From: an uncultured Candidatus Nitrosopumilus sp.
GTDB taxonomy: Archaea; Thermoproteota; Nitrososphaeria; Nitrososphaerales; Nitrosopumilaceae
Length of the DNA: 32,000 bases
Direction of reading: 5' to 3'
Assembly (NCBI GenBank): GCA_905616385.1
Contig: CAJQSS010000004.1
Span: 8,185-40,184, forward strand
Shown: piece after piece, positions 1-24,542 of the stretch
Position numbering within the stretch: position 1 is the first letter of the stretch
Layout of the letters: each line of letters opens with the position of its first letter
Notes under the pieces: model-generated
Told to the model about the DNA's origin: nothing
What the model saw: the letters and a program-made list of their open reading frames with translations, nothing else
Databases searched by the model: none
Translations under genes and position numbers: made by a program

Positions 1-689
1 ATGCCATAAAATATCAGAGGACGTTCAATTGCTACATATTTTAGCGTACTTAAAATCACTGATGATCCATGACTAATTGGATTATGTGTTGAGGTATCAC
101 CTTCATACAAAATGGTGATTGGTACTTCGGTAATTATGAAACCAGCTTTTTGTGTTTTAATTAATATCTCTGTAGAAATACCCATTCCTGATTCTTTTGG
201 TTCAATCTCTTCTAAAATTTTTTTGCTATAAGCTCTAAATCCACTTTGTGAATCTGTAATTTTTGTCCCCCCTGTAACATTTGTTAATTTTGTAATTGCT
301 TTTATTCCAATTTCCCTATATTTTGGAATTTCTTGATTATTGTTCAAAAATCTGGAACCAATTACAATATCTGCCGCATTATTTTTAATTGGTTCTAAAA
401 TTGCATTGATATCCTCAATTCTATGTTGACCATCAGCATCAAATGTAACTAACACATCTGCGTTTATTTCACGTGCTTTTAAAAAAATACTTTTTATCGC
501 TGAACCGTATCCTAAATTTCTTTCATGCTCAATAACCGTTGCACCTAATTCTTTTGCAATTTTTCCTGTTAAATCATTAGAACCATCATTACACACAATT
601 ATGTTTTCAGATATTTTTTTTAATTTAATTAAAAGACTTGCTATATTTTTTTCTTCATTATACGCAGGAATTCCTATAATTATTTTCAT
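1..689 (-). CDS. Family-2 glycosyltransferase (dolichyl-phosphate mannose/glucose synthase-like); N-terminal part only, C-terminus runs off the left edge
   Basis: Absent from the supplied track because it is open at the window edge. My reverse-strand translation from ATG at 689-687 gives MKIIIGIPAYNEEKNIASLL..VCNDGSNDLT..LVTFDADGQHRIEDI..SQSGFRAY... This is the GT-A/GT2 fold with a DxD-type DADGQH motif. The frame is uninterrupted to position 1. Confidence 0.75.
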   Translation of the reverse strand, partial: MKIIIGIPAYNEEKNIASLLIKLKKISENIIVCNDGSNDLTGKIAKELGATVIEHERNLGYGSAIKSIFLKAREINADVLVTFDADGQHRIEDINAILEPIKNNAADIVIGSRFLNNNQEIPKYREIGIKAITKLTNVTGGTKITDSQSGFRAYSKKILEEIEPKESGMGISTEILIKTQKAGFIITEVPITILYEGDTSTHNPISHGSSVILSTLKYVAIERPLIFYG

Positions 690-733
690 ATTTTCGATTT
701 TACTAATGACCTTTTAAAGTTGTAGTAGGAATT

Positions 734-1750
734 TTATCCCTCTAGTCTGGATTTAATAAAATCTACTGATTTTACAGGAGTTGGATCTATTTTACATATT
801 ACTGCTTTGTAAATTGATGTGTAGTCTAATAGATAAATTAAATGCATTAATTTAGATAAAATATTACCTTTGATCGAAAATATTTCTTTGTATTCTATTT
901 TGTTGGACTCAAAATAATATTTAAGAACCTTCCATCTCTCTTTTGTTCTTATATTATCATCATCACCTTGCAGTAATATTGGAAAAACATTTGATTCATT
1001 TTCCCATGCTACTATTCCATTATGTGAAGCTTCTACCACATCTTCTACTATTGCATGCATTTTTGCATTTTCCTGTAATGCATTCTTAAATCTAATTGCT
1101 GCAGCTTGTAATCCCCAAGGATAATAAATTAAAGGAATCCCCAAAACTTCTTTTGCTAACTTTAGTGCTTGATTGGAATCAGTTAAATTATTTGATGATA
1201 TTTGATTTTCTAATTGTTTTATGTTTTCTAATGATTCAATTATTTCTTCTTTTTTAATTGGAATAATAAATTCTAATATTTTTAACATTGAATAGATAAA
1301 ACTAACTAATGAAGCTCTTGGTGAATTGTATTCTTTAATTTTTCTGTATTCTATTCTATTTTCATTACAAATTTTTGCAATTTTTCCACCTGAAGAAACT
1401 GCAATTACATTACATTCTAAATATTTTGTTTGATCTAAAATAGATAATGCCTCTGATGTATTTCCTGAAACACTGGTAATAACCACTAAAGAATTTTTAT
1501 CTACAGTTTTTGGTAAAGTATATCCCTTTACCACTGTAACGTGCAATTTTGTTTGTGATAATATTGCTGAAAAAATATCTCCAATAGATCCTGATCCGCC
1601 CATCCCTGCAAAAACTATGTGATCTATATTTTCATATTTTAACGATTGCCAATTTTCTTCATATGTATTTTTAGCAATTTCTGACCATTTATCATAAACC
1701 TTGAACATCTCTTTTTTATCTATATTTTGAAGATCTAATTTTGTAATCAA
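734..1750 (-). CDS. Bifunctional phosphoglucose/phosphomannose isomerase (SIS-domain, archaeal PGI/PMI family)
   Basis: 338 aa. Has the SIS phosphosugar-binding signature FAGMGGSGSIGD and a second SIS-like half (VITSVSGNTSE, AVSSGG). The length fits archaeal PGI/PMI. TTG start. It lies directly upstream of, and co-directional with, the GT2 gene. Confidence 0.7.
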   Translation of the reverse strand: MITKLDLQNIDKKEMFKVYDKWSEIAKNTYEENWQSLKYENIDHIVFAGMGGSGSIGDIFSAILSQTKLHVTVVKGYTLPKTVDKNSLVVITSVSGNTSEALSILDQTKYLECNVIAVSSGGKIAKICNENRIEYRKIKEYNSPRASLVSFIYSMLKILEFIIPIKKEEIIESLENIKQLENQISSNNLTDSNQALKLAKEVLGIPLIYYPWGLQAAAIRFKNALQENAKMHAIVEDVVEASHNGIVAWENESNVFPILLQGDDDNIRTKERWKVLKYYFESNKIEYKEIFSIKGNILSKLMHLIYLLDYTSIYKAVICKIDPTPVKSVDFIKSRLEG

Positions 1751-2965: not shown

Positions 2966-3607
2966 ATGAGTACAGTTTCTGCACAAGCAATTGAAGATTC
3001 ATTAAAACAGTGTATGGATCCTGAAGTTCCTCTCAACATTGTAGAAATGGGATTAATTTATGGAATTGATGTTAAAGAAAATAATGATGTCGATATTAAA
3101 ATGACAATGACTACACAAGGTTGTCCTTTACATGAAACTTTGATTGCAGATGCAACAAGATTTGCCAAAAAAGTTCCTGGAGTGAATAATGTCAAAATTG
3201 ACATTGTCTGGGAGCCTGCATGGTCCATGGATAAAATGACTGAAGAAGGAAAACTCAAAATTAAAGAAATGGGTGCTAATGGTTTGAATACTCCTGCACC
3301 AATAAATTATGAAACTGCGTTACCTCAAGGAGTTGGTAAGTTAGTTCAACAAGACGATGGTTCAATGGTTTTAGCTAATGAGCATGAACAAGGATTTATG
3401 GTAAATCAGGCAATTGTTGATTTTTGGAAATCTTGTAATGGTCAACGTAAGGTGACAGATCTTGTAGAGGTATTTGCACAACAAACAGGATTACAAAGAA
3501 ACCAGGTTGAAAAAGAAGTTATGCAATTACTTCAACAACTTCGTGATGGTGGATTAATTGCTATTGCAGGTCAACATGATACACCAAATGTTGAATTTAA
3601 AAAATAA
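2966..3607 (+). CDS. Two-domain protein: N-terminal DUF59/MIP18 (SufT/PaaD-like Fe-S assembly) domain fused to a C-terminal PqqD/RRE-like domain
   Basis: Residues about 10-95 (CMDPEVPLNIVEMGLIY...MTMTTQGCPL...) match the DUF59 pattern. Residues about 125-205 (FMVNQAIVDFWKSCNGQRKVTDLVEVFAQQTGL..VEKEVMQLLQQLRDGGLI) match the PqqD-family pattern: LN..A..iW..cdG..t..el, then fl..L...gli. Confidence 0.6.
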   Translation: MSTVSAQAIEDSLKQCMDPEVPLNIVEMGLIYGIDVKENNDVDIKMTMTTQGCPLHETLIADATRFAKKVPGVNNVKIDIVWEPAWSMDKMTEEGKLKIKEMGANGLNTPAPINYETALPQGVGKLVQQDDGSMVLANEHEQGFMVNQAIVDFWKSCNGQRKVTDLVEVFAQQTGLQRNQVEKEVMQLLQQLRDGGLIAIAGQHDTPNVEFKK

Positions 3608-3609
3608 TT

Positions 3610-4257
3610 TTAAAAAATATAATTAGAGTTTGCGCCATCAAAGTTTATTGTTACTCCTGAAAGATATTTTATATTATTTTCAATTATTGCTTTAACAAAA
3701 TTTCCAATTTCTTGAGGTTCTCCTAATCTTTTCATAGGTAATATTTTCTCAAATTCTTTAACGTTTTTAATTAATTCTTGAGTTCTGTCTGTATTGATAG
3801 GACCTGGTGCAATGTTAACACAGCTGATGTTTTTCTCAGCATATTTTTTACTTAACACTTTGAAAACTTCAGCAAATGCAGCACGGTATGCTGATGATAT
3901 GATCAACTTTGCACTTGGCTCTTTAATTACACTGGAGCTTATCAAAAAAATATATCCACCATCATTGATTTTGATATTTTGTAGTATAGTAACAAATCCT
4001 AGAAATAATTGATTATGATATCGATTCCAGTCTTCTTCTGTAATGGTTAAGAATGGTTTTGGTTCTGGACCTCCTGTGTTTAGAATTAGAACATCTGTTT
4101 GATTGTGTATTTCTAGAAATTTTTTTACACTAGTCAAGTCTGATGTATCAATATCATTTTTTGAAGCAGCAAAAACGTCAATTTTTATAGATTTTAATGA
4201 CTCTGAAATTGCTTTTCCTATTCCTCTTGAACCCCCAAGCACAATTGCATTAGTCAT
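3610..4257 (-). CDS. Short-chain dehydrogenase/reductase (SDR), short classical type
   Basis: 215 aa. Has the N-terminal Rossmann motif VLGGSRGIGKAI, a catalytic-region S..YRAAFAE-like segment (Y-x3-(K/A)-type), and PGPINTD downstream. Confidence 0.65.
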   Translation of the reverse strand: MTNAIVLGGSRGIGKAISESLKSIKIDVFAASKNDIDTSDLTSVKKFLEIHNQTDVLILNTGGPEPKPFLTITEEDWNRYHNQLFLGFVTILQNIKINDGGYIFLISSSVIKEPSAKLIISSAYRAAFAEVFKVLSKKYAEKNISCVNIAPGPINTDRTQELIKNVKEFEKILPMKRLGEPQEIGNFVKAIIENNIKYLSGVTINFDGANSNYIF

Positions 4258-4417
4258 ACCATTTTAGAAATTTTCTCATAATTAAATTCTTTAATTTTAT
4301 AATTCTAATGTATCGATATTATTTTGAATAATCAAATTTTTTTAAAATTTTAGGGAATTTTAGTTTTTAGATATGCATAACTAATATAAATATAGATTAA
4401 AAAGGAAAATTAAGAAT

Positions 4418-4624
4418 TTGAAATCATATACAATTATTCTAGTTTTATTATTTTCTACAGGTTATTTTATATCTGATGCATATGCTTACCTAGACGCTGG
4501 TACAGGCAGTATAATATTACAATCCTTAATTGGAGTTTTAGTTGGAGTTGCAATTACTTTGAAAATTTATTGGTTAAAAATCAAAGAAAAATTTTCAAAT
4601 ATTTCTAAAAAAAACGAAACCTAA
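4418..4624 (+). CDS. Small membrane protein (68 aa, two hydrophobic helices), first gene of the phosphonate-tailoring operon
   Basis: TTG start. One hydrophobic segment is ILVLLFSTGYFI. It is followed by a YLDAGTGSIILQSLIGVLVGVAI segment and a basic tail. The stop lies 9 nt before the next gene. No function can be assigned. Confidence 0.45.
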   Translation: MKSYTIILVLLFSTGYFISDAYAYLDAGTGSIILQSLIGVLVGVAITLKIYWLKIKEKFSNISKKNET

Positions 4625-4633
4625 TTATTCAAT

Positions 4634-5803
4634 ATGAAATTTCTTGATATCTCTTTAGGTTCTGAATTAAATGAACTTAAAAGATTTGAAAGTTTGAAAC
4701 AGGAAGAACGAAAGATAGTTTTTTATTCAGAAAATAAGAATTCGGTGTTCATCTTTGAATCTTTAATTAATGAATTAGTTAATGTACATAATTATGATAT
4801 TTGTTATGTAACTTCAAGTAGAGATGAACCACTCCTTAAAACTTCAAATAAAAAAATTAAGACTTTTAATATTGGAGAAGGTGTTGCAAGAACAAAATTT
4901 TTCTTAAATTTACAAGCAGATATTTTGATAATGACTATGCCAGATTTAGAAACATTTCATATTAAAAGATCAAAAATTTATCCCGTACATTATATTTACA
5001 TCTTTCATGCAATGGTAAGTACACATTTAGTATATCGTAAAAATGCATTTGATCATTTTGATTCAATTTTGTGTGTGGGAGCATATCAGATTGATGAAAT
5101 TAGAAGTACTGAAAAATTTTATAATTTAAAACCAAAAAAATTAATTCCTTGTGGTTATAGTCACTTAGATGATCTTATTAAAAAATATACAAAAAGAATT
5201 GATGATATTCCCAAAGATAAAAATCAAACTCAAATATTATTGGCACCATCATGGGGTAAAAATGGATTATTTGAAACAATAATTGAAGATCTAATAAAAA
5301 TACTGTTGGATTCTAAATACAAAGTTATCTTTCGACCTCACCCTATGACAATCAAATCTTCAAAAAAGAAACTATTATCAATTGAAAAAATATTTTCATC
5401 AAACCCAAATTTTAAGTTAGAATTAGATTTACCAAATTTTGATTCATTTTTATTTTCTGATGTAATGATTTCAGATTGGTCTGGTGTGGCATTAGAATTT
5501 GCTTTTGCTTTTGAAAAACCTGTTCTATATATTGATGTACCAAAAAAAATTCGTAATCCCGATTTTAAAGACATATCACAAACACCAATAGAAGTGAGTA
5601 TTAGAGAAAAAATTGGTAAAATTATTTCGCCATTAGAAATCAAGCATATTTCAACAGAAATTGAAATGCTAAAGCAAAAATCATCTGAAATTAAAAAAGA
5701 TATAAGAAACATAAGAGAAAAAGAAATTTTCAATATTGGAAATTCAGAAAAAAAGTCCGCCGAGTATATTATTGAATTGTTAAATCAATTAAAAAAAAAT
5801 TAA
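4634..5803 (+). CDS. CDP-glycerol/alditol-phosphate transferase-like protein (TagF/TarF family fold), candidate phosphonyl/phosphoryl transferase
   Basis: 389 aa. ILLAPSWGKNG resembles the TagF-family L(Y/L)APT(W/F)R block. VMISDWSGVALEFAFAFEKPVLYID resembles the family's (T/S)D(Y/W)SS..fdf....kP...y block. Call made by eye only. Confidence 0.5.
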   Translation: MKFLDISLGSELNELKRFESLKQEERKIVFYSENKNSVFIFESLINELVNVHNYDICYVTSSRDEPLLKTSNKKIKTFNIGEGVARTKFFLNLQADILIMTMPDLETFHIKRSKIYPVHYIYIFHAMVSTHLVYRKNAFDHFDSILCVGAYQIDEIRSTEKFYNLKPKKLIPCGYSHLDDLIKKYTKRIDDIPKDKNQTQILLAPSWGKNGLFETIIEDLIKILLDSKYKVIFRPHPMTIKSSKKKLLSIEKIFSSNPNFKLELDLPNFDSFLFSDVMISDWSGVALEFAFAFEKPVLYIDVPKKIRNPDFKDISQTPIEVSIREKIGKIISPLEIKHISTEIEMLKQKSSEIKKDIRNIREKEIFNIGNSEKKSAEYIIELLNQLKKN

Positions 5804-5867
5804 TCTATTGATAAGTGATTTTTAAATTTTATAAGAAAAAGTCATAAACAGTAGAAATTAGATTATT

Positions 5868-6626
5868 TTGTTGAGAGCAATTATTTTAGCAGCTGGAAAA
5901 GGAAGTAGATTAGAAGAATTAACAAAAAATATTTCAAAAGGCATGCTCAAATTATTTGGTAAAACATTGATCGAAAGACAAATAGAAATTTATCAAAAAT
6001 GTGGAATTGATGATATCACAATTGTAACTGGCTACAAAAGTGAAATGATAAATTTTTCAGGCATAAATTATGTAAAAAATCAAGATTATGCTACAACCAA
6101 CATGAATGAAAGTTTATTTTGTGCAAGTGAAAAATTATCAGATTCGGTAATTATTTCATATACTGATATAGTATTTGAGCAAAAAATGATTGAGCAAATG
6201 TTGCAGTTTTCAGGTGATATAGGAGTAGCTGTAAGTCTAAACTGGAAAAAAAATTACGATGGACGTACATTACACCCATTATCAGAAGCTGAAAATGTAT
6301 TGATTGAAAATGACAAAATAATTCAGATTAAAAAAAATATTTCAGAAGCATCATCAGATCAAAAAATTGGTGAATTTTTGGGAGTTATGAAATTATCTAA
6401 TGAAGGAGGAAAAATTCTATTACAGAAGTATTTAGAGTTAAAAGAAAATCATACGGAAACATTTCATATGGCTAAATCTTTCAAAGATGCATATATTACT
6501 GATATGTTACAAGAAATAATTGACTCTGGCTATGATGTTTCTCCTGTGGTAGTAGATGGGAATTGGTATGAAATTGATACTCCGCAGGATCTAGAAGAAG
6601 TAGAAAGATCTTCTATGTTTAATTAA
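5868..6626 (+). CDS. Sugar/phospho-alcohol nucleotidyltransferase (LicC/PntC-like cytidylyltransferase family)
   Basis: 252 aa. Has the N-terminal NTP-transferase signature AIILAAGKGSRL (G-x-G-(S/T)-R-L). The size and C-terminal W(Y)EIDTPQD block are typical of LicC-like enzymes. TTG start. The stop overlaps the stop of the convergent oxygenase gene by 4 nt. Confidence 0.7.
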   Translation: MLRAIILAAGKGSRLEELTKNISKGMLKLFGKTLIERQIEIYQKCGIDDITIVTGYKSEMINFSGINYVKNQDYATTNMNESLFCASEKLSDSVIISYTDIVFEQKMIEQMLQFSGDIGVAVSLNWKKNYDGRTLHPLSEAENVLIENDKIIQIKKNISEASSDQKIGEFLGVMKLSNEGGKILLQKYLELKENHTETFHMAKSFKDAYITDMLQEIIDSGYDVSPVVVDGNWYEIDTPQDLEEVERSSMFN

Positions 6627-7993
6627 TTATTTTTTGGATCAAACCACTGCAATGATTCATTTATTGCTCTTTTAACACTTCTTTTACCAACAAAGGATAA
6701 TTCTCTTTGTGAATCACCAGTAATCTTTCCACCTAGTCTTAATACCAAAAGTTTTCCAGATCCTCTAAAATTATGTTGTAAAAATGGTTTCAAGTATGCA
6801 GAATCTCCTGAATGAATAATTTCTTTAAATTGTTTATTATTATATGACCAGTTAAGGATTACATCTGTATTACCTATATTGTAGATATATTGATGTAAAC
6901 CTACTTCAAGATCTAATGATGAATCATCTTGAGATAACATATCAATTTCAAAAGCTTTTGAGTAGGGTAAGGTAGTTGACGATGCTAAATCATGGAATTT
7001 ATAATTTTTTGATTCTGGATAAAACCAATCTTTTCCTTCTTTATGACATTGTAAAATAACTTTATTTTCTATTTTTTCATTAGGACGTAAATCACGCGTA
7101 TTGATATTAAGTGACGTAGCTAAACTCTGAAGTTCAATTTCCGAAGGCATACTAACATTATTTTCAAAATCTTCAATTTTTCTTTCTGATACGTTACTTC
7201 TTTGAGAGAGCTCATTAATCGATATGCTTCCTATTTCACGATGGAATTTTAAAAGGGATGAAAATGTATGTTGTTTTGAAGAAAAGTCAAGAGCATATTC
7301 TTGACCTAGCTCTGAAGAAATTGCTGATAGTTCCTGTTGAACGTCACCAGTTAATTTATTTCCATAAGTTAATGCTAAAATCAGACCATTTTGTTTTGCG
7401 CCAGATCTTGTAGTAAAAGTATGAGGAGTGAAAGGCGTGATATACATAGAATCCCCAGTATTCATTACTGCAACTTGTTTTTTACCATCTGAATCAAGAT
7501 AATAGAAATTAACATCTCCAACGAAATAAGTAAACTGATGCATAAAGTGCCCTCTATTCCATTGAGCATTTGGATTCTTAGGATCATTATCATCAACATA
7601 ACATAATTCCATTATCCATTCAGGTCTAAAAGGAGCTAAACTGCTCATCACCGTATCTCTATATTCATAATATGGTTTACCTGCACGATCCATTATCCTA
7701 CTACTCTTTTCTGAATTTGTAGATGTCATGATTTTAACTCCAAAATTACAATCATCTCGAATTATGTAGAAATCACGTTCATTAATTGACCATATTTCTG
7801 CAGCACGAGTGACCATTTCAGGTGTTAATTTTCTCTCCCCTTTAATAATCAAAGATATCTCTGCAGTAGTTACATTCAATTCCTTTGCTGCATCCTCCGG
7901 TCTTCTTTTAAGATCATTTAAAATTCCTAAGAAATTGCTGCCAATACGTTTATTCTCATTTTTAATATTGAGAGTATTTTCTAAAGTTTCCAA
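6623..7993 (-). CDS. mpnS: Methylphosphonate synthase-type non-heme Fe(II) oxygenase (MpnS/HEPD family; tandem HTH-cupin/HTH-cupin architecture)
   Basis: 456 aa with an internal duplication. HTH-like segments occur at about 20-75 (PEDAAKELNVTTAEISLIIKGERKLT) and about 245-300 (SINELSQRSNVSERKIEDFENNVSMPS), each followed by a cupin barrel. The first cupin carries NRGHFMHQFTYF ... ITPFTPHTF, giving H149/Q153/H191. The gene sits immediately downstream of the Fe-ADH and opposite pepM/ppd. Confidence 0.8.
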   Translation of the reverse strand: METLENTLNIKNENKRIGSNFLGILNDLKRRPEDAAKELNVTTAEISLIIKGERKLTPEMVTRAAEIWSINERDFYIIRDDCNFGVKIMTSTNSEKSSRIMDRAGKPYYEYRDTVMSSLAPFRPEWIMELCYVDDNDPKNPNAQWNRGHFMHQFTYFVGDVNFYYLDSDGKKQVAVMNTGDSMYITPFTPHTFTTRSGAKQNGLILALTYGNKLTGDVQQELSAISSELGQEYALDFSSKQHTFSSLLKFHREIGSISINELSQRSNVSERKIEDFENNVSMPSEIELQSLATSLNINTRDLRPNEKIENKVILQCHKEGKDWFYPESKNYKFHDLASSTTLPYSKAFEIDMLSQDDSSLDLEVGLHQYIYNIGNTDVILNWSYNNKQFKEIIHSGDSAYLKPFLQHNFRGSGKLLVLRLGGKITGDSQRELSFVGKRSVKRAINESLQWFDPKNN

Positions 7994-8057
7994 TTAAGTT
8001 AATATGAAATTCATTTACTTAAATTGTTTTTGTTGATTTTCAATTAATACGTAATAC

Positions 8058-9005
8058 TTAATTCAATACATTGTTTGAATTAATTTTTTCAAGAAGTAAA
8101 ACTATGTCTTCATGTGAAACTAATTTAGGATTATTATCAAGATGTTTTTTATCAGTCAATATTAGATCAGCTGCATTATGAGAATTTGATTGTAATTTTA
8201 TAGATTCAAAATTTAGTTTTTTCACAATTTTAAGAAAACGTGAATAAAATTTTGAATCATTAAATTTATGAGCTACTGTTGTGGTAAAAGCTAAAGCATG
8301 ACCATGAGAAATACCTTCATTGGAAAAAACATATGATAAAGCATGTCCTAAAGTAGTGGAACAATTTCCAAAACCTAAACCTGAAAATAAAGAACCAAGA
8401 ACGATTTTTTCATTATCTTCATTTAATATTCCTGATTCTAAATAATCAAATGCTCTTTCACATAAGAATTTTGTATAAAAATTTCCAATTTTACTATCAA
8501 ACCCTTCACTACATTGAGCTAAAGCATCAATTGCAGAATTTTTAAAGACATTTTCTGGAGTATGAGAAATAAATTCTGAATCAACAATAGCAGTATTGGC
8601 AAAAAATTTATCATCATGAAAACTTTTCTTTTTTCCATTAATTTTTAATACTGCTATTCGTGTTACTTCACTACCACTTCCAAATGTAGTTGGTATCATA
8701 ATTTTAAATTTATTCATTTTTGCAGCACTAAATTTTGCTACATCAAGAGCACTTCCTCCACCTAAACCAATTATCGATGAAATTTTGGTGTTTGAAAATT
8801 CAGATAAAATTTTCTCGACCGTTTCAATCGAAGGATTATTTTCGACTTTATCAAAAAGAGAATAATTTTTTAATCTAAGATATTCGATCCATCCACGTTG
8901 TTTTGCTCCTTTAGATGTAATTAAAAGACAATTTTCAGGAAAATCATATTTTGATACAGAATGTTTTCCAAAAATAATTTTTGAAGGTTGTTTAATTATA
9001 TACAC
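8058..9005 (-). CDS. pdh: Iron-containing (group III) alcohol dehydrogenase; by context phosphonoacetaldehyde reductase producing 2-hydroxyethylphosphonate
   Basis: 315 aa. Has the GLGGGSALDVAKF dinucleotide/Fe-ADH signature and His-rich metal region LGHALSY...HGHALAF. It lies upstream of, and co-directional with, the MpnS-type gene and divergent from pepM. Confidence 0.75.
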   Translation of the reverse strand: MYIIKQPSKIIFGKHSVSKYDFPENCLLITSKGAKQRGWIEYLRLKNYSLFDKVENNPSIETVEKILSEFSNTKISSIIGLGGGSALDVAKFSAAKMNKFKIMIPTTFGSGSEVTRIAVLKINGKKKSFHDDKFFANTAIVDSEFISHTPENVFKNSAIDALAQCSEGFDSKIGNFYTKFLCERAFDYLESGILNEDNEKIVLGSLFSGLGFGNCSTTLGHALSYVFSNEGISHGHALAFTTTVAHKFNDSKFYSRFLKIVKKLNFESIKLQSNSHNAADLILTDKKHLDNNPKLVSHEDIVLLLEKINSNNVLN

Positions 9006-9067
9006 AAATATTGAACTAAAGTTAAAAATTAATAGTTAACTAGATGGGTATTCATGAATAACAGAAT
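9006..9067. promoter_or_regulatory. 62-bp divergent intergenic region, candidate bidirectional promoter for the pdh-mpnS and pepM-ppd operons
   Basis: This is the only non-coding DNA between the two divergent phosphonate operons. It contains an AT-rich TATA-like tract GTTAAAAATTAATAGTTAAC (9021-9040) with 5-bp inverted ends GTTAA/TTAAC, about 30-45 bp from both start codons. No transcript data are available. Confidence 0.3.
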
Positions 9068-9967
9068 ATGAAAACAAATGCAGAAATACTTAGAGAATTA
9101 CTTGACTCAAAACCTATTCTAAAGATTTGTGGTGCCTATGATGCAATGTCAGCCAAATTAGTTGAAAATGTGGGTTTTGATGCAGTATGGGCTGGAAGTT
9201 TTGCTATATCTGCAATTAATGCGGTTCCTGATGCAAGCATTTTAACTATGACAGAATTTTTTGATGCAGCTTCAAAGATGGTGAATGTTTGTAAAATTCC
9301 TGTTATTGCTGATTGTGACACAGGTTATGGTGGACCAAATAATGTAAGACATTTAGTCAAAAAATATGAAAGCGCAGGAATAGCGGCAATTAGTATAGAA
9401 GATAAAATTTTTCCTAAACAAAATAGTTTACTTGAAAATGGAACACATGCTCTTTTATCAGAAAAAGATTTTGTAGGAAAAATTATTGCTGCTAATGATG
9501 CAAAACAAAACAAAGAATTTATGATAATTGCAAGAGTTGAAGCATTGATAGCAGGTTTAGGAATGGATAACGCCATAAAACGAGCTAGAGCATATGAAAA
9601 AGCAGGTGCCGATGCAATATTAATTCACTCAAAAAAACATACTCCCGAAGAAATTTTTGAATTTGTTGATTCCTGGAATGGAAACTTACCAATTGTAGTA
9701 GTCCCTACCAATTATGGTACAGTAAAGATTGATGAATTAATTCAACATAAGATAAAAATGACTATTTATGCAAATCAAACTCTTAGAGCTGCTCACGCAG
9801 CTATCACCAGGACATTAAATGAAATGATAAAAGTTGAAAGTATGAGTGAAATAAAGGAAAAAATTTCAAGTATGGAAGATATTTTCCAATTACAAGAAAT
9901 GTATGATTTACAAACAAATGAAGCAGCATTAGAAGAAAAATACAAAAAATTAGGTTATGAGTCTTGA
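9068..9967 (+). CDS. pepM: Phosphoenolpyruvate phosphomutase (PEP mutase)
   Basis: 299 aa of the isocitrate lyase/PEP mutase superfamily (ADCDTGYGG). It carries the PepM-discriminating motif EDKxxxxxNS as EDKIFPKQNS, residues 111-120, nt 9398-9427. It is followed by phosphonopyruvate decarboxylase genes. Confidence 0.9.
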   Translation: MKTNAEILRELLDSKPILKICGAYDAMSAKLVENVGFDAVWAGSFAISAINAVPDASILTMTEFFDAASKMVNVCKIPVIADCDTGYGGPNNVRHLVKKYESAGIAAISIEDKIFPKQNSLLENGTHALLSEKDFVGKIIAANDAKQNKEFMIIARVEALIAGLGMDNAIKRARAYEKAGADAILIHSKKHTPEEIFEFVDSWNGNLPIVVVPTNYGTVKIDELIQHKIKMTIYANQTLRAAHAAITRTLNEMIKVESMSEIKEKISSMEDIFQLQEMYDLQTNEAALEEKYKKLGYES

Positions 9968-10449
9968 AAGAAAAAATTCAGAGAGATATTTTTGATTACT
10001 TTTCAAAAAATGGAATAGAGAATTTTATTGGTGTTCCAGATTCCACTATGAAATATTTTATAGAACAAGGTTTAGAACAAAAAAAGATTCTCATTACAAC
10101 CAAAGAAGAGGAAGCAATTGGAATAGGTGCAGGATTTTGTATATCAAAAAGCCCTACAATCATTTTTATGCAAAATGCAGGATTTGGAAATTCAATTAGT
10201 ACTATAACATCTCTCATTCAGCTTTATGAAATTCCTTTGATATTTCTAATAGGGTGGAGGGGATATAAAAAAAATGATGCGCCAGAACATTTAGGGTTTG
10301 GCAAAATTCAAAATCAGCTTTTGAAAATCTTGGATATTCCATTTAAGATTATGTCTGAAAATGAATGGAAATCAATATGTGATTGGTCATTACATAATTT
10401 GCATAAGAATAATTCTTGTGCACTAATAATTAAGAGGGAACATGAATAG
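9964..10449 (+). CDS. ppd: Phosphonopyruvate decarboxylase, alpha (pyrimidine-binding) subunit
   Basis: 161 aa. Has a TPP-enzyme N-terminal domain (FIGVPDS..., EEEAIGIGAG, MQNAGFGN), like the ComD/Ppd alpha half. The TTG start overlaps the pepM stop by 4 nt. Confidence 0.75.
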   Translation: MKEKIQRDIFDYFSKNGIENFIGVPDSTMKYFIEQGLEQKKILITTKEEEAIGIGAGFCISKSPTIIFMQNAGFGNSISTITSLIQLYEIPLIFLIGWRGYKKNDAPEHLGFGKIQNQLLKILDIPFKIMSENEWKSICDWSLHNLHKNNSCALIIKREHE

Positions 10450-11005
10450 AAAACAAGCCATTTCCACAATTGTTAAAGAAGTTGGAAACAATCCAATAAT
10501 TTCAGCTAATGGATTCATTAGTAGAGATTTGTATGAAACATGTGATAGAAACCAAAATTTTTACATGATTGGTTCAATGGGATTGGCATCTTCTATAGGT
10601 CTAGGAGTTGCACTAAAAAATCCAAAAATTAAGGTTTTTGTTTTTGATGGAGATGGAAACATATTGATGAATTTAGGATCATTAACAACAATTGGTAGTT
10701 TACAGCCAAAAAATCTAATTCATATCATTTTTGATAATAACAGTCATGAATCTACAGGAGGTCAACCTACACATTCTAACAAAATAAAATTATCGCGTAT
10801 TGGAAAATCTGTAAATTATAAAGTGTTCAACATAGTATCAAAAAAGGAATTAATATCTAATTTTAAAAAAATCATAAATCATAAAGGCCCTGTAATGATT
10901 GTTGTTAAAGTCAACAAAAGTAAGAAAGTTAGTAAGAGAGTTGAAATTGAACCAAAAAAAATTGTAGAAAGATTTACAAATTCATTAAAAATCCATTCAT
11001 CCTAA
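10442..11005 (+). CDS. ppd: Phosphonopyruvate decarboxylase, beta (diphosphate-binding) subunit
   Basis: 187 aa. Has the TPP-binding motif GDG-x26-NN (FDGDGNILMNLGSLTT...IIFDNNSHESTGGQ, G70-N100). The ATG overlaps the alpha-subunit stop by 8 nt. Confidence 0.8.
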   Translation: MNRKQAISTIVKEVGNNPIISANGFISRDLYETCDRNQNFYMIGSMGLASSIGLGVALKNPKIKVFVFDGDGNILMNLGSLTTIGSLQPKNLIHIIFDNNSHESTGGQPTHSNKIKLSRIGKSVNYKVFNIVSKKELISNFKKIINHKGPVMIVVKVNKSKKVSKRVEIEPKKIVERFTNSLKIHSS

Positions 11006-11132
11006 AATTTATTATAAATTGAAAAATCTATATATAAAAATAAAAATTGTGCCTATAATTCAGTTTTAGTTATTCATTTGAGATGATTTTCTGTTCCGAG
11101 TATTTATTATTGCTAATTATAAAATAAAAATT

Positions 11133-12710
11133 ATGAATATTTCCAAAACAAGTGTTTTTCATCCATTTTTGTTTGCTATTTTTCCAATAATTCATCTATA
11201 CTCAATTAATTTTATTGAAGTTCCTATGGATGATATAATTTTTCCAATATTTGTTTCAATTTTAGTTACTGGATCTTTATTATTTCTCTCACAAATAATT
11301 TTGAAAGATTGGACAAAATCATCTCTTATTGTTTCATTATTGTTAGTGTTGTCATTTTCTTATGGTCATATCTACCATTTGTTAAATGGAATGGCATTGG
11401 AAGATCTTGAAATTGTGAGACATAGATATCTTATGGTTGTATTTCTTGTTATATTCATCATAGGAACAATAGCCATTGTTAAAACACAAATTAAATTCAA
11501 TAATTTAAATAAAATAATTACTGCAATTGCAATTACTTTAATTCTAATTACAATGCCTAGTTTTGTATATGCTGGAATTTCTACATCAGAAATCAGTGAT
11601 GACATACAAGTACAAACAGTTGATGACATACAAGTACAAAATCCTAGAATAACATATGAATTAAAAAACATAGATAAATTGAATTCCACAGAAAAACCCG
11701 ATATCTATTACATTTTACTAGATGGATATGGGGGAACAGAGAGGATGAAACAAGATCTTAATTTTGATAATTACGAATTTCTTTCAGAATTAACGAATAG
11801 GGGATTTTTTGCTCCCGATTCGAGCTCAGGTAATTACCCCTCAACTAACTGGCAGATGACATCAATATTTAGCATGAATTATTTGCCATCTAAAGAAAAA
11901 GAACAATCAGACCCAGAGTATTATTCTTCGATTATTGAAATCTCTAAGGCAAATGAAGTTATGCGGAATTTTCATCATTTAAATTATGAAATTATTAATT
12001 TTCAACCCAAGGGATTTATCACACAACATTATTTGTTTAATGATCAAACTTTTTGTCAAAAAGAGCAATTAAAACAATCAAAATTTACTCAGATGTTACT
12101 TCGAACAACCATACTAAATTATTTGAATAATCAAATAGTAGTAAATGTATATAGAGAAAGTATTCTGTGTGGATTTTCAGAGATATCTAATTTGACGGAA
12201 AAAAATGATAAACCAATATTTGTGTATATGCACTTAGCAATACCCCATCCTCCATATGTATTTGGACCAAACGGAGAATATGTATTTGGAGGTAAGGTCC
12301 AAACTGAAGAAGGAAGTTTTGTTGATGAGGAAAAATACGTTGATTCAATAAAATTTGTAAATAAAAAAACTCTTGAAGTTATAGAAAATATTTTAAGAAA
12401 TAATGAAAACTCAATCATAATTATTCAATCAGATCATGGTTATGATTTTGGAATTAATTATGAAAATCCATCTGATATGAGTCTTAAGCAAAGATTTTCA
12501 ACTCTTAATGCAATATATTTTCCAGATCAAAATCAAGATATTCTATATGATGGAATTACACCGGTAAACACGTTTAGAATTGTTTTTAATGAATATTTTA
12601 ATGCCTCATATCCAATTTTAGATGATAGAATGTATTACCACCCCTACGGAGTAACTGGTATTTATACAGACGTAAAATTTCAAGATGTAACTGAAATAAT
12701 TTTAAATTAA
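11133..12710 (+). CDS. Polytopic membrane protein with C-terminal alkaline-phosphatase/sulfatase-superfamily domain (LtaS/EptA-like phosphotransferase architecture)
   Basis: 525 aa. The N-terminal 150 aa or so hold about five hydrophobic helices. The soluble domain has PDIYYILLDGYGG (metal-binding Asp), YPSTNWQMTSIFS (Ser/Thr nucleophile region) and IIIIQSDHGY (D-H metal pair). I saw no C/S-x-P-x-R formylglycine motif. Confidence 0.65.
   Translation: MNISKTSVFHPFLFAIFPIIHLYSINFIEVPMDDIIFPIFVSILVTGSLLFLSQIILKDWTKSSLIVSLLLVLSFSYGHIYHLLNGMALEDLEIVRHRYLMVVFLVIFIIGTIAIVKTQIKFNNLNKIITAIAITLILITMPSFVYAGISTSEISDDIQVQTVDDIQVQNPRITYELKNIDKLNSTEKPDIYYILLDGYGGTERMKQDLNFDNYEFLSELTNRGFFAPDSSSGNYPSTNWQMTSIFSMNYLPSKEKEQSDPEYYSSIIEISKANEVMRNFHHLNYEIINFQPKGFITQHYLFNDQTFCQKEQLKQSKFTQMLLRTTILNYLNNQIVVNVYRESILCGFSEISNLTEKNDKPIFVYMHLAIPHPPYVFGPNGEYVFGGKVQTEEGSFVDEEKYVDSIKFVNKKTLEVIENILRNNENSIIIIQSDHGYDFGINYENPSDMSLKQRFSTLNAIYFPDQNQDILYDGITPVNTFRIVFNEYFNASYPILDDRMYYHPYGVTGIYTDVKFQDVTEIILN
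11598..11640 (+). repeat. In-frame tandem duplication (period 24 nt, two copies sharing 19 identical nt) inside the sulfatase-like gene
   Basis: GATGACATACAAGTACAAA occurs at 11598-11616 and again at 11622-11640. It encodes DDIQVQ(TV)DDIQVQ(NP) in the linker between the membrane and catalytic domains. Confidence 0.9.
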
Positions 12711-12733
12711 AAATATTGTAATTTTTTATAAAA

Positions 12734-13207
12734 TTACATTTTTCCTTGTTGCCATGCTTGATTAAATTTTTTGATGGCTTCTTGATATGCTGTAATTGAT
12801 TCATCACCTGATGTTGTAAGAAATTTCTCCCATTGCCCATTAAATTTTTTTATTGATTCAATATTGGTTTCTTTGAAAATACTCTCAATCATTTTTGTTT
12901 GTTGTTTGATATATTCTGGACCAATTTCTTCCCAAGTATTTTCCCAACTTGTACTAACTTTTTTCAATAATTCTGAATCTGATTCTATTGCCTTTTGACA
13001 TGCATCATGATACGCCATTAATGTTTCATTTGTAGCCTTTTGCCATTGTGATAAGGATGCTTTCCATCCAGTTAATGCAGAATTATACTCTTTCCATGCT
13101 TTTTCAAATTCTGGTTTTTTTGTAGATGTTTTACTTTGTTTTTTTGGCTTAGAACTTGCTTTTTTTACTACTTTTTTTTTAATTTTAGATTTGTTTTTGA
13201 CAGCCAT
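12734..13207 (-). CDS. Hypothetical protein with a Lys-rich N-terminal tail and a Trp-rich helical body
   Basis: 157 aa. The N-terminus is KNKSKIKKKVVKKASSKPKKQSKTSTKK. Repeated W-containing helical segments follow (AWKEYNSALTGWKASLSQWQKA, SWENTWEEI, GQWEKF, QAWQQG). No recognisable catalytic motif. Confidence 0.5.
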   Translation of the reverse strand: MAVKNKSKIKKKVVKKASSKPKKQSKTSTKKPEFEKAWKEYNSALTGWKASLSQWQKATNETLMAYHDACQKAIESDSELLKKVSTSWENTWEEIGPEYIKQQTKMIESIFKETNIESIKKFNGQWEKFLTTSGDESITAYQEAIKKFNQAWQQGKM

Positions 13208-13525
13208 GTTTTTAGGTTTAATCTAATAGAAATTAAACTTTTTAATTATTTTGAGATTAAAAATTTCTTAATTTTTGTCAAAATTTTGATGCTTTAGAAA
13301 AGGTTGGAATGTGTGTTTCATCTTTATTTTTAAATAACTTGTAATGATTTTTACATAAATTCCTGGTTTCTTTAAAACTGATTTTTACAGTTTGGATAGC
13401 TTTTTCTTTACATTCTGAAATACTACATTGCAATATTGTAAATAATTGATATTTCCTAATAAAACTTTGAAATTATATAATTACCACTACTAACTTTTTT
13501 ATGATTGTAGTATATTGCAAAAATT

Positions 13526-16359: not shown

Positions 16360-17442
16360 GTGAAAATAAGAACAAAATCCTCTATTCGGAGACATATTCC
16401 TGTTATTCATGGTGGAAAAATCCCTGTAAAAAATAGCGATCATAATATCATTGATTTTAGTTCTAATATCACTCCTCTTGGAATTCCTAATTCTGTAAAA
16501 TTAATAATTAAAAAAAATTTAGATAAAATTCAATTTTACCCTGACCCAAAATCTGAAAATGTAATTTCAAGTCTAGAAAAATATACGCATTTATCAAAAT
16601 CAAATATTATTGTTGGAAATGGTGCAATTGAAATTCTTTATAATTTTTGTTTTGCATTTTTATCTAAAACAACTAAAGTGCTAATTCACGTACCGACATT
16701 TGAAGAATACGAAGCTGCAGTAAAACTAAGTAATTGTAAAATTTCATATTTTAAATCCTTAAATTTGTCTACAAACATTGATTCATTTATTTCACAAATT
16801 CCAAAAAGTGGATGTATTTTTCTTTGTAATCCTAATAATCCTACAGGGGAATTATTATCAAAAAAAGAATTATTATCTATAATTATTGTAGCAAAAAAAT
16901 TAAAAACTATTGTATTTATTGATGAATGCTTTATTGAATTAGTTCCAAAATCTAATGAATCTGTTATATCTTATGTAAAAAAATATGATAATTTATTCAT
17001 TTTAAGATCTTTAACAAAATCATTTGGTTTACCTGGATTAAGAATTGGATATGCATGTGGTTCTAAAGAAATAATTAAAATTTTACAAAAAATTAAAATT
17101 CCTTGGAGTGTAAATTCTTTAGCACAAGATGCAGCAAATGCTGTGATTAAAAATACCTCTCATCTTAAAAAATCTAATATAATAATTAAAAAAGAATTAA
17201 AGTATTTAGAAGATAATATTTCTATTTTAAATGGATTTGAATGTATTTTTTCATCTACTAATTTTATTTTAATTAAAATAAAATATGATTCTACAAAGTT
17301 ACAAACAAAATTATTAAAAAATAAAATTTTAATCCGTGATTGTAAAAATTTTAGAGGTTTAGATAATCATTACATTCGAATTGCAGTAAAATCTCACAAA
17401 GATAATGTAAAATTAGTAAAAGCATTGGAGAAAATAAAATGA
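16360..17442 (+). CDS. cobD: L-threonine-O-3-phosphate decarboxylase (class I/II aminotransferase fold), cobalamin aminopropanol arm
   Basis: 360 aa. The N-terminal block VIHGGKI...IIDFSSNITPLGIP is typical of CobD. Also has FLCNPNNPTG and the PLP-lysine block LRSLTKSFGLPGLRIGY. GTG start. It heads an operon with cobQ/cbiB/cobS/cobY. Confidence 0.75.
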   Translation: MKIRTKSSIRRHIPVIHGGKIPVKNSDHNIIDFSSNITPLGIPNSVKLIIKKNLDKIQFYPDPKSENVISSLEKYTHLSKSNIIVGNGAIEILYNFCFAFLSKTTKVLIHVPTFEEYEAAVKLSNCKISYFKSLNLSTNIDSFISQIPKSGCIFLCNPNNPTGELLSKKELLSIIIVAKKLKTIVFIDECFIELVPKSNESVISYVKKYDNLFILRSLTKSFGLPGLRIGYACGSKEIIKILQKIKIPWSVNSLAQDAANAVIKNTSHLKKSNIIIKKELKYLEDNISILNGFECIFSSTNFILIKIKYDSTKLQTKLLKNKILIRDCKNFRGLDNHYIRIAVKSHKDNVKLVKALEKIK

Positions 17443-18278
17443 AATCATTAATGATTCAGGGAACTTCCTCTGGTGCTGGTAAAACAACCTTGGTTGCAGC
17501 CTTGTGTAGAATTTTTTCAGATAAGGGTTACAGTGTTGCTCCGTTTAAATCTCAAAATATGTCTAATTTTGCTTATATTACGCCTGATTTTGAAATTTCT
17601 CGTGCTCAAGCAATTCAAGCTTTTGGTGCACGTTGTAATATTACGCCTGATTTGAATCCTATTTTATTAAAACCAGTTGGAAATTATTCTAGTATTGTAT
17701 ATTTGAACGGTAAGCGTTTCAAAAAAATGCATGCTCAAGAATATTATGAAAAATTTGTTAATATTGAAGGTATGAAAATAGCTACAAAATCACTGAAGAC
17801 ATTACAGAAAAATTTTGATCTGGTAATTATGGAGGGTGCAGGTTCTCCTGCAGAAATTAATTTACAAAAATATGATATTGCAAATATGAAAATTGCTAAA
17901 AAAGCAAATGCAGATGTATTATTGGTAACTGATATTGATAAAGGAGGATCTTTTGCAAGTTTAGTTGGAACCATGAATTTAATTGATAAAAAATATCAAA
18001 AACTTGTCAAGGGGTTTATTTTTAATAAATTTCGTGGTGATATTGATGTATTAAAACCTGGATTTAAAAAATTAAAAAATATTACAAAAATTCCTACTTT
18101 TGGAACTATTCCATTAATATCATTAAATTTACCTGAGGAGGATTCTCTTAATGTAAAACCTAAACATATTACTTGGAGTAAAAAAAATATTTCAAAAATT
18201 GATGATGAATTAAATAAATTATCAAAAATTGTTAAATCAAATATTGATATTAATTCAATTGAGAAAATGTTACAATGA
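17439..18278 (+). CDS. cobQ: Cobyric acid synthase-like ATPase domain (CobQ/CbiP N-terminal half only; no glutamine amidotransferase domain)
   Basis: 279 aa. CobQ-typical blocks: IQGTSSGAGKTTLVAALCRIF..GY.VAPFKSQNMSN, RAQAIQA, NPILLKP, EGAGSPAEINL, DIDKGGSFASLVGT, FNKFRGD and LPEEDS. The ORF ends about 40 aa after the EDS block, where full-length CobQ continues into a roughly 200-aa GATase domain. Confidence 0.7.
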   Translation: MKSLMIQGTSSGAGKTTLVAALCRIFSDKGYSVAPFKSQNMSNFAYITPDFEISRAQAIQAFGARCNITPDLNPILLKPVGNYSSIVYLNGKRFKKMHAQEYYEKFVNIEGMKIATKSLKTLQKNFDLVIMEGAGSPAEINLQKYDIANMKIAKKANADVLLVTDIDKGGSFASLVGTMNLIDKKYQKLVKGFIFNKFRGDIDVLKPGFKKLKNITKIPTFGTIPLISLNLPEEDSLNVKPKHITWSKKNISKIDDELNKLSKIVKSNIDINSIEKMLQ

Positions 18279-22880: not shown

Positions 22881-24503
22881 ATGGCATCAATTCAACAAGG
22901 ACCCAATGGACCTGTATTAGTTCTTAAAGAAAGTGCATTACAACAAAAAGGTAAAGATGCTCAACAAAACAACATTGCTGCAGCAAAATTAGTTGCAGAA
23001 TTAGTTAAAAGTAGTCTTGGACCTCGTGGTTTAGATAAAATGTTAGTAGATTCCTTAGGTGACGTTACAATTACAAATGATGGTGCTACTATTCTTAAAG
23101 AAATTGATGTTCAACACCCAGCAGCAAAAATGATTGTTGAAATTGCTAAAACTGTAGATAATGAAGTAGGTGATGGAACAACTTCTTCGGTTGTTTTTGG
23201 AGGTGCATTATTAGCTAGAGCAGAAGATCTCTTGAAAAAAGATGTTCATTCTTCAACTATTATTGAAGGTTATCAAGCAGCAGCTGAAAAAACTCTTGAA
23301 ATCTACTCTCAATTATCCAAAAAAATTCAACCTGATGATAAAGCATCACTTATTAAAATTGCTTCAACAAGTATGCAATCGAAATTAATTTCTGAAGATA
23401 GTAGTATTTTATCAAAAATTGTTGTTGATGCAATTCTTAGTATTACAACAAAAAAAGGTGATAAATATTTCGTTGATCTTGAAAATATTAAAGTTGAAAA
23501 GAAACCAGGTGGTTCAATTGACGATACACAAATTGTAAAAGGTATTGTTTTAGATAAAGAAATTGTTCATAGTGGAATGCCTACTAAAATAGAATCTGCA
23601 AAAATCGCATTAATTAATTCCGCATTAGAAATTGAAAAAACTGAAATGAGTGCAGAAATCAGAATTACCGATCCAACTCAAATGCAGATGTTCTTAGAAG
23701 AAGAAAATAGAATGCTAAAAACAATGGTTGATAAATTACATGATGTCGGTGCTAATGTTTTGATTTGTCAAAAAGGAATTGATGATATTGCACAACATTA
23801 TCTTTCTAAACATGGTATCATGGCAATTCGTCGTGTCAAAGAAAGTGATATGATTAAACTTTCTAAAGCTACAGATGGTCGTGTAATTAGTAATTTGGAT
23901 GATTTATCTGAAAATGATCTTGGTCATGCTGATTTAGCTCATCAGAAGAAAGTCGAATCTGATAAATGGGTATTCATTGAAGGTTGTAAACATCCACAAT
24001 CTGTTACAATGTTAATTCGTGGAGGAACTCAAAGAGTAATTGATGAAGTTGATCGTTCTATTCATGATGCATTAATGGTAGTAAAAGATGTAATTGAAAA
24101 ACCTGAAATTGTTGCAGGTGGAGGTGCTCCTGAATCATTTGCAGCATCTCAACTTAAAGAATGGGCTGATAATTTTAGTGGAAGAGAACAACTTGCAATT
24201 AAAAAATATGCTGAAGCATTAGAGGTAATTCCATTAACTATTGCTGAAAATGCAGGTATGGATCCAATTGATACAATGGCTACTTTAAGATCAAAACAAA
24301 ATCAAGGTCAGAAATGGACTGGAATTGATGCAAAAAATACAAAAATTGCTGATATGATGGCAATTAATGTTTTAGAGCCAATTGTAGTCAAAGAACAAAT
24401 TATAAAATCGGCAACCGAAGCAGCCTGTATGATTCTTAGAATAGATGATGTTATTGCTATATCTGGTGGTCCCGGTGGCGGCGGTATGCCTCCAATGGGA
24501 TAA
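22881..24503 (+). CDS. ths: Thermosome subunit (group II chaperonin)
   Basis: 540 aa. Motifs: [24 protein letters not shown] (ATP site), VAGGGA, and a C-terminal Gly/Met tail [12 protein letters not shown]. Confidence 0.95.
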
Positions 24504-24542
24504 ATTTAGTTAAAACTTAATCATACTACTTTTCATAAATTA

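Follow-up and report, generated by a model that had tools for sequence, protein, structure and literature searches.

The window analysed here, a 32,000-nt stretch of contig CAJQSS010000004.1 from an uncultured Candidatus Nitrosopumilus sp., carries between positions 4418 and 12710 a group of genes resembling those for methylphosphonate (MPn) biosynthesis. Two divergent units flank an intergenic spacer at 9006–9067. On the minus strand lie pdh (8058–9005; 315 aa), for a group III Fe-alcohol dehydrogenase that is putatively a Pdh/PhpC-type phosphonoacetaldehyde reductase, and mpnS (6623–7993; 456 aa), whose product contains two tandem repeats of a helix-turn-helix (HTH)-like domain and a cupin domain. 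On the plus strand, pepM (9068–9967; 299 aa), for phosphoenolpyruvate (PEP) mutase, is followed by ppdA (9964–10449; 161 aa) and ppdB (10442–11005; 187 aa), for the alpha and beta parts of a phosphonopyruvate decarboxylase, and by a gene for an EptA/PbgA-like, membrane-anchored enzyme of the alkaline phosphatase superfamily (11133–12710; 525 aa). pepM and ppdA overlap by 4 nt, ppdA and ppdB by 8 nt. Left of mpnS, an accessory operon on the plus strand begins with a gene for a 68-aa small membrane protein (4418–4624) and continues with genes for a TagF-like CDP-alcohol phosphotransferase homologue (4634–5803; 389 aa) and a LicC/PntC-like nucleotidyltransferase (5868–6626; 252 aa), the last of which runs towards mpnS and shares 4 nt with it. 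The 68-aa open reading frame (ORF) explains why an earlier note on this DNA has the region start at 4418. The 456-aa tandem HTH–cupin oxygenase, the group III Fe-alcohol dehydrogenase and the two divergent operons of that note were all found as described, and the spacer between the latter measures exactly the 62 bp that had been claimed.

For annotation, domains were called with Pfam and NCBIfam models, and matches to solved structures were taken from a PDB sequence search. Loci used for comparison are numbered L001–L047; a single scan of a genome collection did not return Nitrosopumilus maritimus SCM1 itself. Taken as a whole, the region is very probably a functional cassette for making MPn, with putative tailoring genes joined to it, and its host a marine ammonia oxidiser of Nitrosopumilus-like type among the archaea. 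In the proposed route, PepM would convert PEP to phosphonopyruvate, and PpdA/B would decarboxylate phosphonopyruvate to phosphonoacetaldehyde, pulling an unfavourable equilibrium forward. Pdh would then reduce phosphonoacetaldehyde to 2-hydroxyethylphosphonate (2-HEP), and MpnS, as a non-haem Fe(II) enzyme with a 2-His-1-Gln site, would use O2 to cleave the C1–C2 bond, giving MPn and CO2 or bicarbonate.

Assignment of the core pathway enzymes

For the 456-aa cupin protein, the PDB sequence search returned N. maritimus MpnS (6B9S) at 656.6 bits (E = 1.7e-196), with a gapless alignment of residues 16–455 to residues 15–454 of the solved protein. S. albus HEPD (6B9R) was the second-best solved homologue (278.6 bits, full length), and HppE scored 36 bits. 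HEPD (PhpD) and HppE belong to the same tandem HTH–cupin fold family, and HEPD also takes 2-HEP; an HEPD at this position would yield hydroxymethylphosphonate and formate in place of MPn. Because the two enzymes share a His/Gln/His site, overall homology cannot separate MpnS from HEPD activity, and the full-length match to 6B9R is what this alternative has in its favour. It is nevertheless very improbable, as the score against MpnS is more than double that against HEPD and a neighbour-joining tree rooted on HEPD placed the window protein inside the thaumarchaeal MpnS clade, with the homologue of L001 as its sister. Identity was 61–67% to MpnS of coastal, cultured or metagenome-assembled genome (MAG) loci of the Nitrosopumilaceae and 41–47% to MpnS of SAR11 and other bacteria.

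Residues at the active site point the same way. According to Born et al. in 2017, the iron ligands of MpnS are reportedly H148, Q152 and H190 (2-His-1-Gln; N. maritimus numbering), and F162 and I184 are said to hold the Gln on the iron in MpnS where SaHEPD has Y163 and G184, a difference that separates the activities. In our alignment H149, Q153, F163, I185 and H191 of the window protein fall opposite N. maritimus H148, Q152, F162, I184 and H190, and we take them to be the equivalent ligands and marker residues; the window protein thus has the Phe and Ile of MpnS at the two positions where S. albus HEPD has Tyr and Gly. These residue numbers land on H, Q, F, I and H in 6B9S and on H, Q, Y, G and H in 6B9R, and the rule is corroborated in that its numbering fits both PDB sequences. 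Phe and Ile occupied the Gln-locking positions in 35 of 35 alignable homologues from mpnS loci. JGI gives members of the 90%-identity cluster of the window protein the name methylphosphonate synthase. Together these comparisons support the assignment of the 456-aa protein as a methylphosphonate synthase and not an HEPD, as the earlier note had read it. The name XRE-type transcription factor, which some JGI and NCBI entries carry, was rejected: what HTH_3 matches here are all-alpha domains that belong to the fold shared by HEPD and MpnS.

PepM carries a PEP_mutase domain (PF13714, 203.9 bits). Among NCBIfam models, the PEP mutase model TIGR02320 scored best, at 306.4 bits. The phosphonopyruvate hydrolase model reached 251 bits, and the two alternatives that the earlier note had raised, methylisocitrate lyase and carboxy-PEP mutase, reached 179 and 119. 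The best PDB match was likewise a PEP mutase (5UNC, 267 bits). Residues 111–120 read EDKIFPKQNS (E111-D112-K113-IFPKQ-N119-S120), the motif that had been picked out from the translation. An Asn/Thr difference sets PepM apart from phosphonopyruvate hydrolase. In published work an authentic PepM is recognised by the EDK(X)5NS motif together with a neighbouring Ppd (10.1101/2020.11.04.368217).

The thiamine pyrophosphate (TPP) enzyme is split over two ORFs, as had been noted, with TPP_enzyme_N in PpdA and TPP_enzyme_C in PpdB. PpdA matched the phosphonopyruvate decarboxylase model TIGR03297 (Ppyr-DeCO2ase) at 107 bits over model positions 1–153 of 360, and PpdB matched it at 184.8 bits over positions 171–357; the GDG-x26-NN motif, which fits the general TPP-binding pattern GDG-x(24-27)-NN, lies in PpdB (G70-D71-G72 to N99-N100). 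The split was considered as a frameshift or pseudogene and rejected, the same two ORFs being present in six near-identical assemblies and in L007, where the 8-nt overlap also recurs. Other Nitrosopumilaceae loci likewise gave two adjacent Ppd matches. The 4-nt overlap of ppdA with pepM is consistent with translational coupling.

TIGR03297 was the best model for both halves, with the sulfopyruvate decarboxylase models close behind (alpha 102 against 107 bits, beta 172 against 185) and all of these scores below cutoff. ComDE, the sulfopyruvate decarboxylase, is also a split enzyme, and on these scores the pair could be taken as ComDE-like and the Fe-alcohol dehydrogenase as a general aldehyde reductase, leaving the phosphonate pathway a superficial resemblance. 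That explanation is scarcely credible. Both ComDE scores are themselves sub-cutoff, ppdA overlaps an authentic pepM, and pepM, ppd, pdh and mpnS are found together in most of about 35 informative loci, from archaea to SAR11; moreover, MpnS requires 2-HEP, which is supplied by this route only. The assignment of the split enzyme as Ppd rests on genomic context.

Pdh has the domains Fe-ADH, Fe-ADH_2 and ADH_Fe_C, and it is 63–69% identical to Pdh of other Nitrosopumilaceae mpnS clusters. A D-Q-H-H metal site, as against D-H-H-H, was seen in every archaeal and SAR11 mpnS-linked Pdh examined. The mpnS-linked Pdh proteins of Myxococcota, Acidobacteriota and Gammaproteobacteria have D-H-H-(L/M/R) at the same site. 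A phosphonoacetaldehyde reductase function is proposed for the window protein because its linkage with mpnS is conserved.

A number of points weigh against a functional MPn cassette. PepM falls just short of the TIGR02320 cutoff of 319.55 bits, and the assignment was kept despite this score because of the motif and the adjacent Ppd. The summed score of the two Ppd halves (about 292 bits) is likewise slightly below the TIGR03297 cutoff of 312.5. For Pdh, the phosphonate-specific model TIGR03405 (Phn_Fe-ADH) was the second-best NCBIfam match, at 89.8 bits against a cutoff of 423.7, so that sequence places the protein in the Fe-ADH superfamily only; in its metal site, D160-Q164-H221-H236, Gln replaces the first His, at the second ligand position. 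The residue rule by which MpnS was separated from HEPD is corroborated only by the fit of its numbering to two PDB sequences. As for the tailoring enzymes discussed below, the substrates of all three are ones that we infer entirely, and the nucleotidyltransferase could use 2-HEP or another phosphoester. Lastly, N. maritimus Pdh was insoluble when its expression was attempted (PMC12619172).

Accessory genes and possible tailoring of methylphosphonate

The nucleotidyltransferase, with NTP_transf_3 and NTP_transferase domains, found its best PDB match in LicC (1JYK; CTP:phosphocholine cytidylyltransferase) at 60.9 bits, and the PntC-containing fusion 6PD1 was also matched. Most of the mpnS loci examined, archaeal and bacterial alike, have a homologue of it close by. 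PntC-type enzymes make CMP–phosphonate conjugates in bacterial surface tailoring, and nucleotidyl activation is the prevailing route in phosphonate tailoring (PMC6697681).

PDB sequence searches with the TagF-like and EptA-like proteins returned no matches, and their folds were predicted and compared by Foldseek instead. The TagF-like protein matched Glyphos_transf (PF04464) at 44.3 bits, above the cutoff of 22.1. Its AlphaFold model (pLDDT 88.2) found TagF (3L7K/3L7L) as the best match (E = 3e-12, TM-score 0.58), and capsule polymerases (8QOY/8A0C) were also returned. For this family 3,294 homologues were detected, of which 120 share at least 65% identity. Homologues at 34–38% identity stand beside mpnS in seven bacterial loci from three phyla, namely L019 and L024 (Myxococcota), L021 (Acidobacteriota) and L028, L034, L037 and L039 (SAR11). 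One further homologue, in L046, adjoins a pepM with no mpnS, and the module therefore may not be specific to MPn.

The 68-aa protein has an N-terminal hydrophobic segment and one strong transmembrane (TM) segment. Its ORF is called as a gene in six of six near-identical contigs, with no Pfam family recorded for those homologues. More distant homologues adjoin the cluster in L001 (51% identity) and, in the myxococcotal L019, immediately precede the TagF-like gene (44% over 43 aa).

The 525-aa protein at the right-hand end carries a Pfam Sulfatase domain (PF00884, 41.2 bits). Five to six TM helices are predicted at about residues 12–151, followed by an outward-facing catalytic domain. Its AlphaFold model (pLDDT 82.9) matched EptA (5FGN), EptC, PbgA/YejM and MCR-1 ahead of sulfatases, with modest TM-scores (0.34–0.39 query-normalised, 0.55 for the domain) that speak of resemblance only. 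The formylglycine motif C/S-x-P-x-R is absent from the protein. D197, H367, H372 and D434 are invariant and H435 almost invariant, with T or S at position 238 in every case, a pattern in keeping with the Thr/Ser nucleophile and metal site of EptA/LtaS-type membrane phosphotransferases. Homologues of the protein number 1,702. On the modelled fold it looks like an EptA/PbgA-like enzyme and not a formylglycine sulfatase. The earlier note had placed transferase genes on both flanks of the core: this stood for the left flank, and did not stand as named for the right, where the domain is Pfam Sulfatase and the EptA type comes from the predicted fold only. At 11598–11639 the gene contains a perfect 18-nt duplication, GATGACATACAAGTACAA, with a 6-nt gap, encoding DDIQVQ-TV-DDIQVQ; the repeat falls in the linker that joins the membrane domain to the catalytic one, where the model has low confidence.

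This gene set suggests nucleotide activation of MPn and its transfer to a surface polymer. The LicC/PntC-like enzyme would activate MPn with CTP, probably as CMP–MPn; the TagF-like enzyme would then move the methylphosphonyl group onto a hydroxyl of a surface glycan, glycoprotein or lipid with release of CMP, and the substrate of the EptA-like enzyme may be a phospho(no)ester on the outward side of the membrane. The scheme has its analogues in phosphocholine and 2-aminoethylphosphonate (AEP) decoration and in the teichoic-acid enzyme TagF, where a head group is made, activated with CTP and transferred to a glycan with CMP release. LicC, PntC and TagF are also the nearest solved relatives of the two left-hand accessory enzymes, at 14–18% identity in fold alignments. 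Unlike the head groups of the phosphocholine and AEP systems, the proposed MPn head group has no alcohol or amine, and no LicD-type transferase was found in the window.

The activated and surface-attached moiety might instead be 2-HEP, or a mixture, if only a fraction of the 2-HEP were converted by MpnS and the accessory genes were not MPn-specific. 2-HEP conjugates are known from exopolysaccharides and from marine dissolved organic matter (PMC8942020), LicC/PntC-type enzymes usually take two-carbon head groups such as phosphocholine and AEP (PMC6697681), and the pepM-linked, mpnS-less gene of L046 fits this account too. Against these stand the convergent overlap of the nucleotidyltransferase gene with mpnS itself, the presence of its homologues near mpnS across phyla, the siting of the TagF-like homologues beside mpnS specifically in the seven bacterial loci, and the MPn esters reported for N. 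maritimus (PMC9381506). Attachment of 2-HEP is an improbable alternative overall, and MPn is kept as the preferred head group.

A broader proposal is tentative. The accessory set (the 68-aa, TagF-like, LicC/PntC-like and EptA-like proteins) might form a second, uncharacterised route for attaching MPn to the cell surface, in which an enzyme of TagF fold makes phosphonate esters from CMP–MPn; such a module would have passed between marine Thaumarchaeota and bacterial groups (SAR11, Myxococcota, Acidobacteriota) and would take the place of the set based on soluble "sulfatases" that goes with the usual Nitrosopumilus arrangement. This is possible but doubtful; if it held, the enzymes that build the MPn esters of marine dissolved organic matter would be identified. 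The TagF-like/LicC-like pair, co-occurring with mpnS in two domains of life, is a concrete candidate for the enzymes attaching MPn to polymers. MPn esters from marine microbes are a proposed substrate of aerobic methane production in the ocean; once released, such esters would be degraded to methane by bacteria bearing C–P lyase.

Relation to other phosphonate loci

Metcalf et al. in 2012 (Science 337:1104) reportedly described the methylphosphonate cluster of N. maritimus SCM1, and the MpnS structure 6B9S is from Born et al. in 2017. N. maritimus MpnS and the neighbourhood of the archaeal cluster have been described in the literature (PMC9381506, PMC7490402, PMC12619172), MPn is present as esters on the exopolysaccharide of that species, and mpnS neighbourhoods carry transferases and "arylsulfatases" (both PMC9381506). 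The suspicion voiced in the earlier note that the core pathway was probably already described was borne out by this literature and by the JGI naming of the 90%-identity cluster. The window shares pepM, split ppd, Fe-ADH pdh and mpnS with the N. maritimus type of cluster, and the same host family; it also shares a LicC-like nucleotidyltransferase and genes of the alkaline phosphatase ("sulfatase") superfamily beside the core with the usual cluster. What lies here is a known MPn pathway in a known kind of host, ordinary in its chemistry and different in gene order, position and accessory genes. The residual novelty is the accessory cassette and its cross-domain distribution.

For comparison of gene order, the usual Nitrosopumilus arrangement was read in L002, L005, L007, L008 and L010, none of which is SCM1; L003 and L009 have the same core order. 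The loci giving this arrangement belong to Nitrosopumilus, Nitrosotenuis and Nitrosopelagicus. The usual order is mpnS, a sulfatase-like gene, the NTP transferase gene, ppdB, ppdA, pepM and pdh, with a four-gene PGI-MtnA-FeS-SDR block directly after them. In the window, the TagF-like (GPT) and nucleotidyltransferase (NTP) genes come first, then mpnS-pdh divergent from pepM-ppdAB and the eptA-like gene, and the cassette occupies the other flank of the PGI-MtnA-FeS-SDR block. Core proteins are 53–68% identical to those of the usual loci, as against 81–91% for the flanking MtnA, FeS and SDR proteins. As read in L007, the accessory genes of the usual arrangement are those for three soluble proteins of the sulfatase family, a TylF methyltransferase and an SDR, along with NeuB/CMP-sugar genes; the window has instead the TagF-like gene, the 68-aa membrane protein and a single membrane-anchored EptA-like enzyme. 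All three sulfatase-family genes of L007 (7203–9885, 11350–12477) are likewise without the C/S-x-P-x-R formylglycine motif, and are unlikely to encode true sulfatases.

The window arrangement is common to L001 and L047, in the latter inside a large glycan-biosynthesis island, and it therefore recurs in other environmental contigs. These two loci and the window also share an AT-rich element in the pdh/pepM spacer, TAAAAATTAATAGTTAACT at about 9023–9041, with the form TAAAAATTAATA(G/C)TTAACT across loci, and the rest of the spacer has diverged. The element, part of an imperfect palindrome at 9020–9041, is separated from the start of pdh by about 24 nt and from that of pepM by about 39 nt. Loci with the usual Nitrosopumilus arrangement lack it in their spacers. 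It may be a shared archaeal TATA/BRE region or an operator. A sigma-70 scan over 4200–13300 gave 53 sites against 63.8 expected from shuffles, with a bacterial model that is unsuited to an archaeon, and a terminator scan over the same range gave 2 against 2.3 expected. tRNA and Rfam scans of the whole window returned no RNA genes.

Most deep-marine thaumarchaeal mpnS sequences fall into lineages apart from those of coastal isolates and are widespread in ocean metagenomes (Qin et al. 2020; PMC7490402), and the deep lineages were attributed to uncultured WCB populations (PMC7490402). The window MpnS resembles these lineages in its distance from the coastal, cultured and MAG loci, given above, and in its abundance in ocean assemblies; in contrast to them, its flanking housekeeping genes look Nitrosopumilus-like. 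Clusters with mpnS from SAR11 and other bacteria share the core pathway and the MpnS marker residues, and several have a TagF-like homologue (34–38% identity) and a nucleotidyltransferase beside mpnS. They differ in their bacterial hosts and in Pdh and Ppd proteins that are 23–45% identical to those of the window.

Thaumarchaeal mpnS is reported to be enriched in mesopelagic and deep waters (PMC9381506, PMC7490402). The window adds one well-supported producer genotype, which helps annotation and gene-abundance surveys and leaves the understanding of the pathway unchanged.

Recurrence, host genes and variable junctions

Six independent metagenome contigs contain the same gene set at 97–99.6% nucleotide identity, and since these were independently assembled the cassette is not an assembly artefact. 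An identical MpnS protein was found in 35 blocks of the assembly collection, and it occurs in many ocean metagenome assemblies (ENA, Tara, JGI). Against L047, at synonymous divergence (dS) of 0.66–0.83, the ratio of nonsynonymous to synonymous divergence (dN/dS) was 0.13–0.22 across the TagF-like gene, nucleotidyltransferase, MpnS and PepM genes (PepM 0.13, MpnS 0.15, TagF-like gene 0.22), which indicates, on sequence divergence, purifying selection on all four. The term "island" in the earlier note holds for the variable position and content of the region among its relatives, and does not hold for composition: its GC content is 0.279, and that of the remaining window 0.298 (about 29–30% for the window as a whole). 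Recent horizontal transfer, judged from composition, was rejected, the GC of the region being within the gene-to-gene scatter of 0.25–0.32.

Elsewhere in the window there are genes for a thermosome, an MptE-like kinase, an IF-2B-type methylthioribose-1-phosphate isomerase, IMP dehydrogenase, GMP synthase and a cobalamin finishing operon (CobD, CobQ-N, CbiB, CobS, CobY-like). Housekeeping proteins fall into clusters of ≥90% identity with Nitrosopumilus sp., Ca. N. limneticus and N. piranensis, and by these gene sequences the host is a Nitrosopumilus-like marine ammonia-oxidising archaeon.

Four of the close relatives (L041–L044, 99.1–99.6% identical over 3605–12710) lose similarity exactly at 12710, the stop codon of the EptA-like gene. 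Beyond it they have a 43-aa ORF, followed in L041 by a Methyltransf_3 gene (in L042–L044 the contig ends within the following gene), and the window and L040 have a 157-aa protein and UbiA. The position 12710/12711 is a sharp strain-level breakpoint and the right edge of the cassette. The 157-aa protein (12734–13207, minus strand) is Lys-rich, matches no Pfam or NCBIfam family, and is present in L040 and absent from L041–L044. At the other end, a family-2 glycosyltransferase-like ORF (1–750, minus strand) runs off the start of the window, and over this interval the otherwise 97%-identical L040 falls to 72%; here, upstream of PGI, lies another variable junction.

Among the more distant relatives, L047 has 81% DNA identity to the window over the stretch between the TagF-like gene and pepM, both included, and its PepM protein is 85% identical. 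It then has a fused 375-aa Ppd (15361–16488 of L047) that is only 36–41% identical to the split Ppd of the window (9964–11005). Such a pattern suggests a mosaic, with sequence replaced where pepM meets ppd. L001 (PAOU01000013.1), labelled as a Dehalococcoidia MAG, has a window-type cassette at 60–70% protein identity, and its end matches the thermosome gene of the window (24392–24506) at 79%; it is probably a thaumarchaeal contig mis-binned into that MAG. Two loci labelled "Patescibacteria", L004 and L026, contain Nitrosopumilaceae-type clusters.

The cobyric acid synthase homologue of the cobalamin operon (17439–18278; 279 aa) covers the N-terminal ATPase half only (model positions 1–245 of 480), and no glutamine amidotransferase half adjoins it. 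At 2966–3607, a 213-aa protein fuses an Fe-S assembly domain (SufT/PaaD-like) to a PqqD-like domain, and this fusion is about 90% conserved in other Nitrosopumilus loci.

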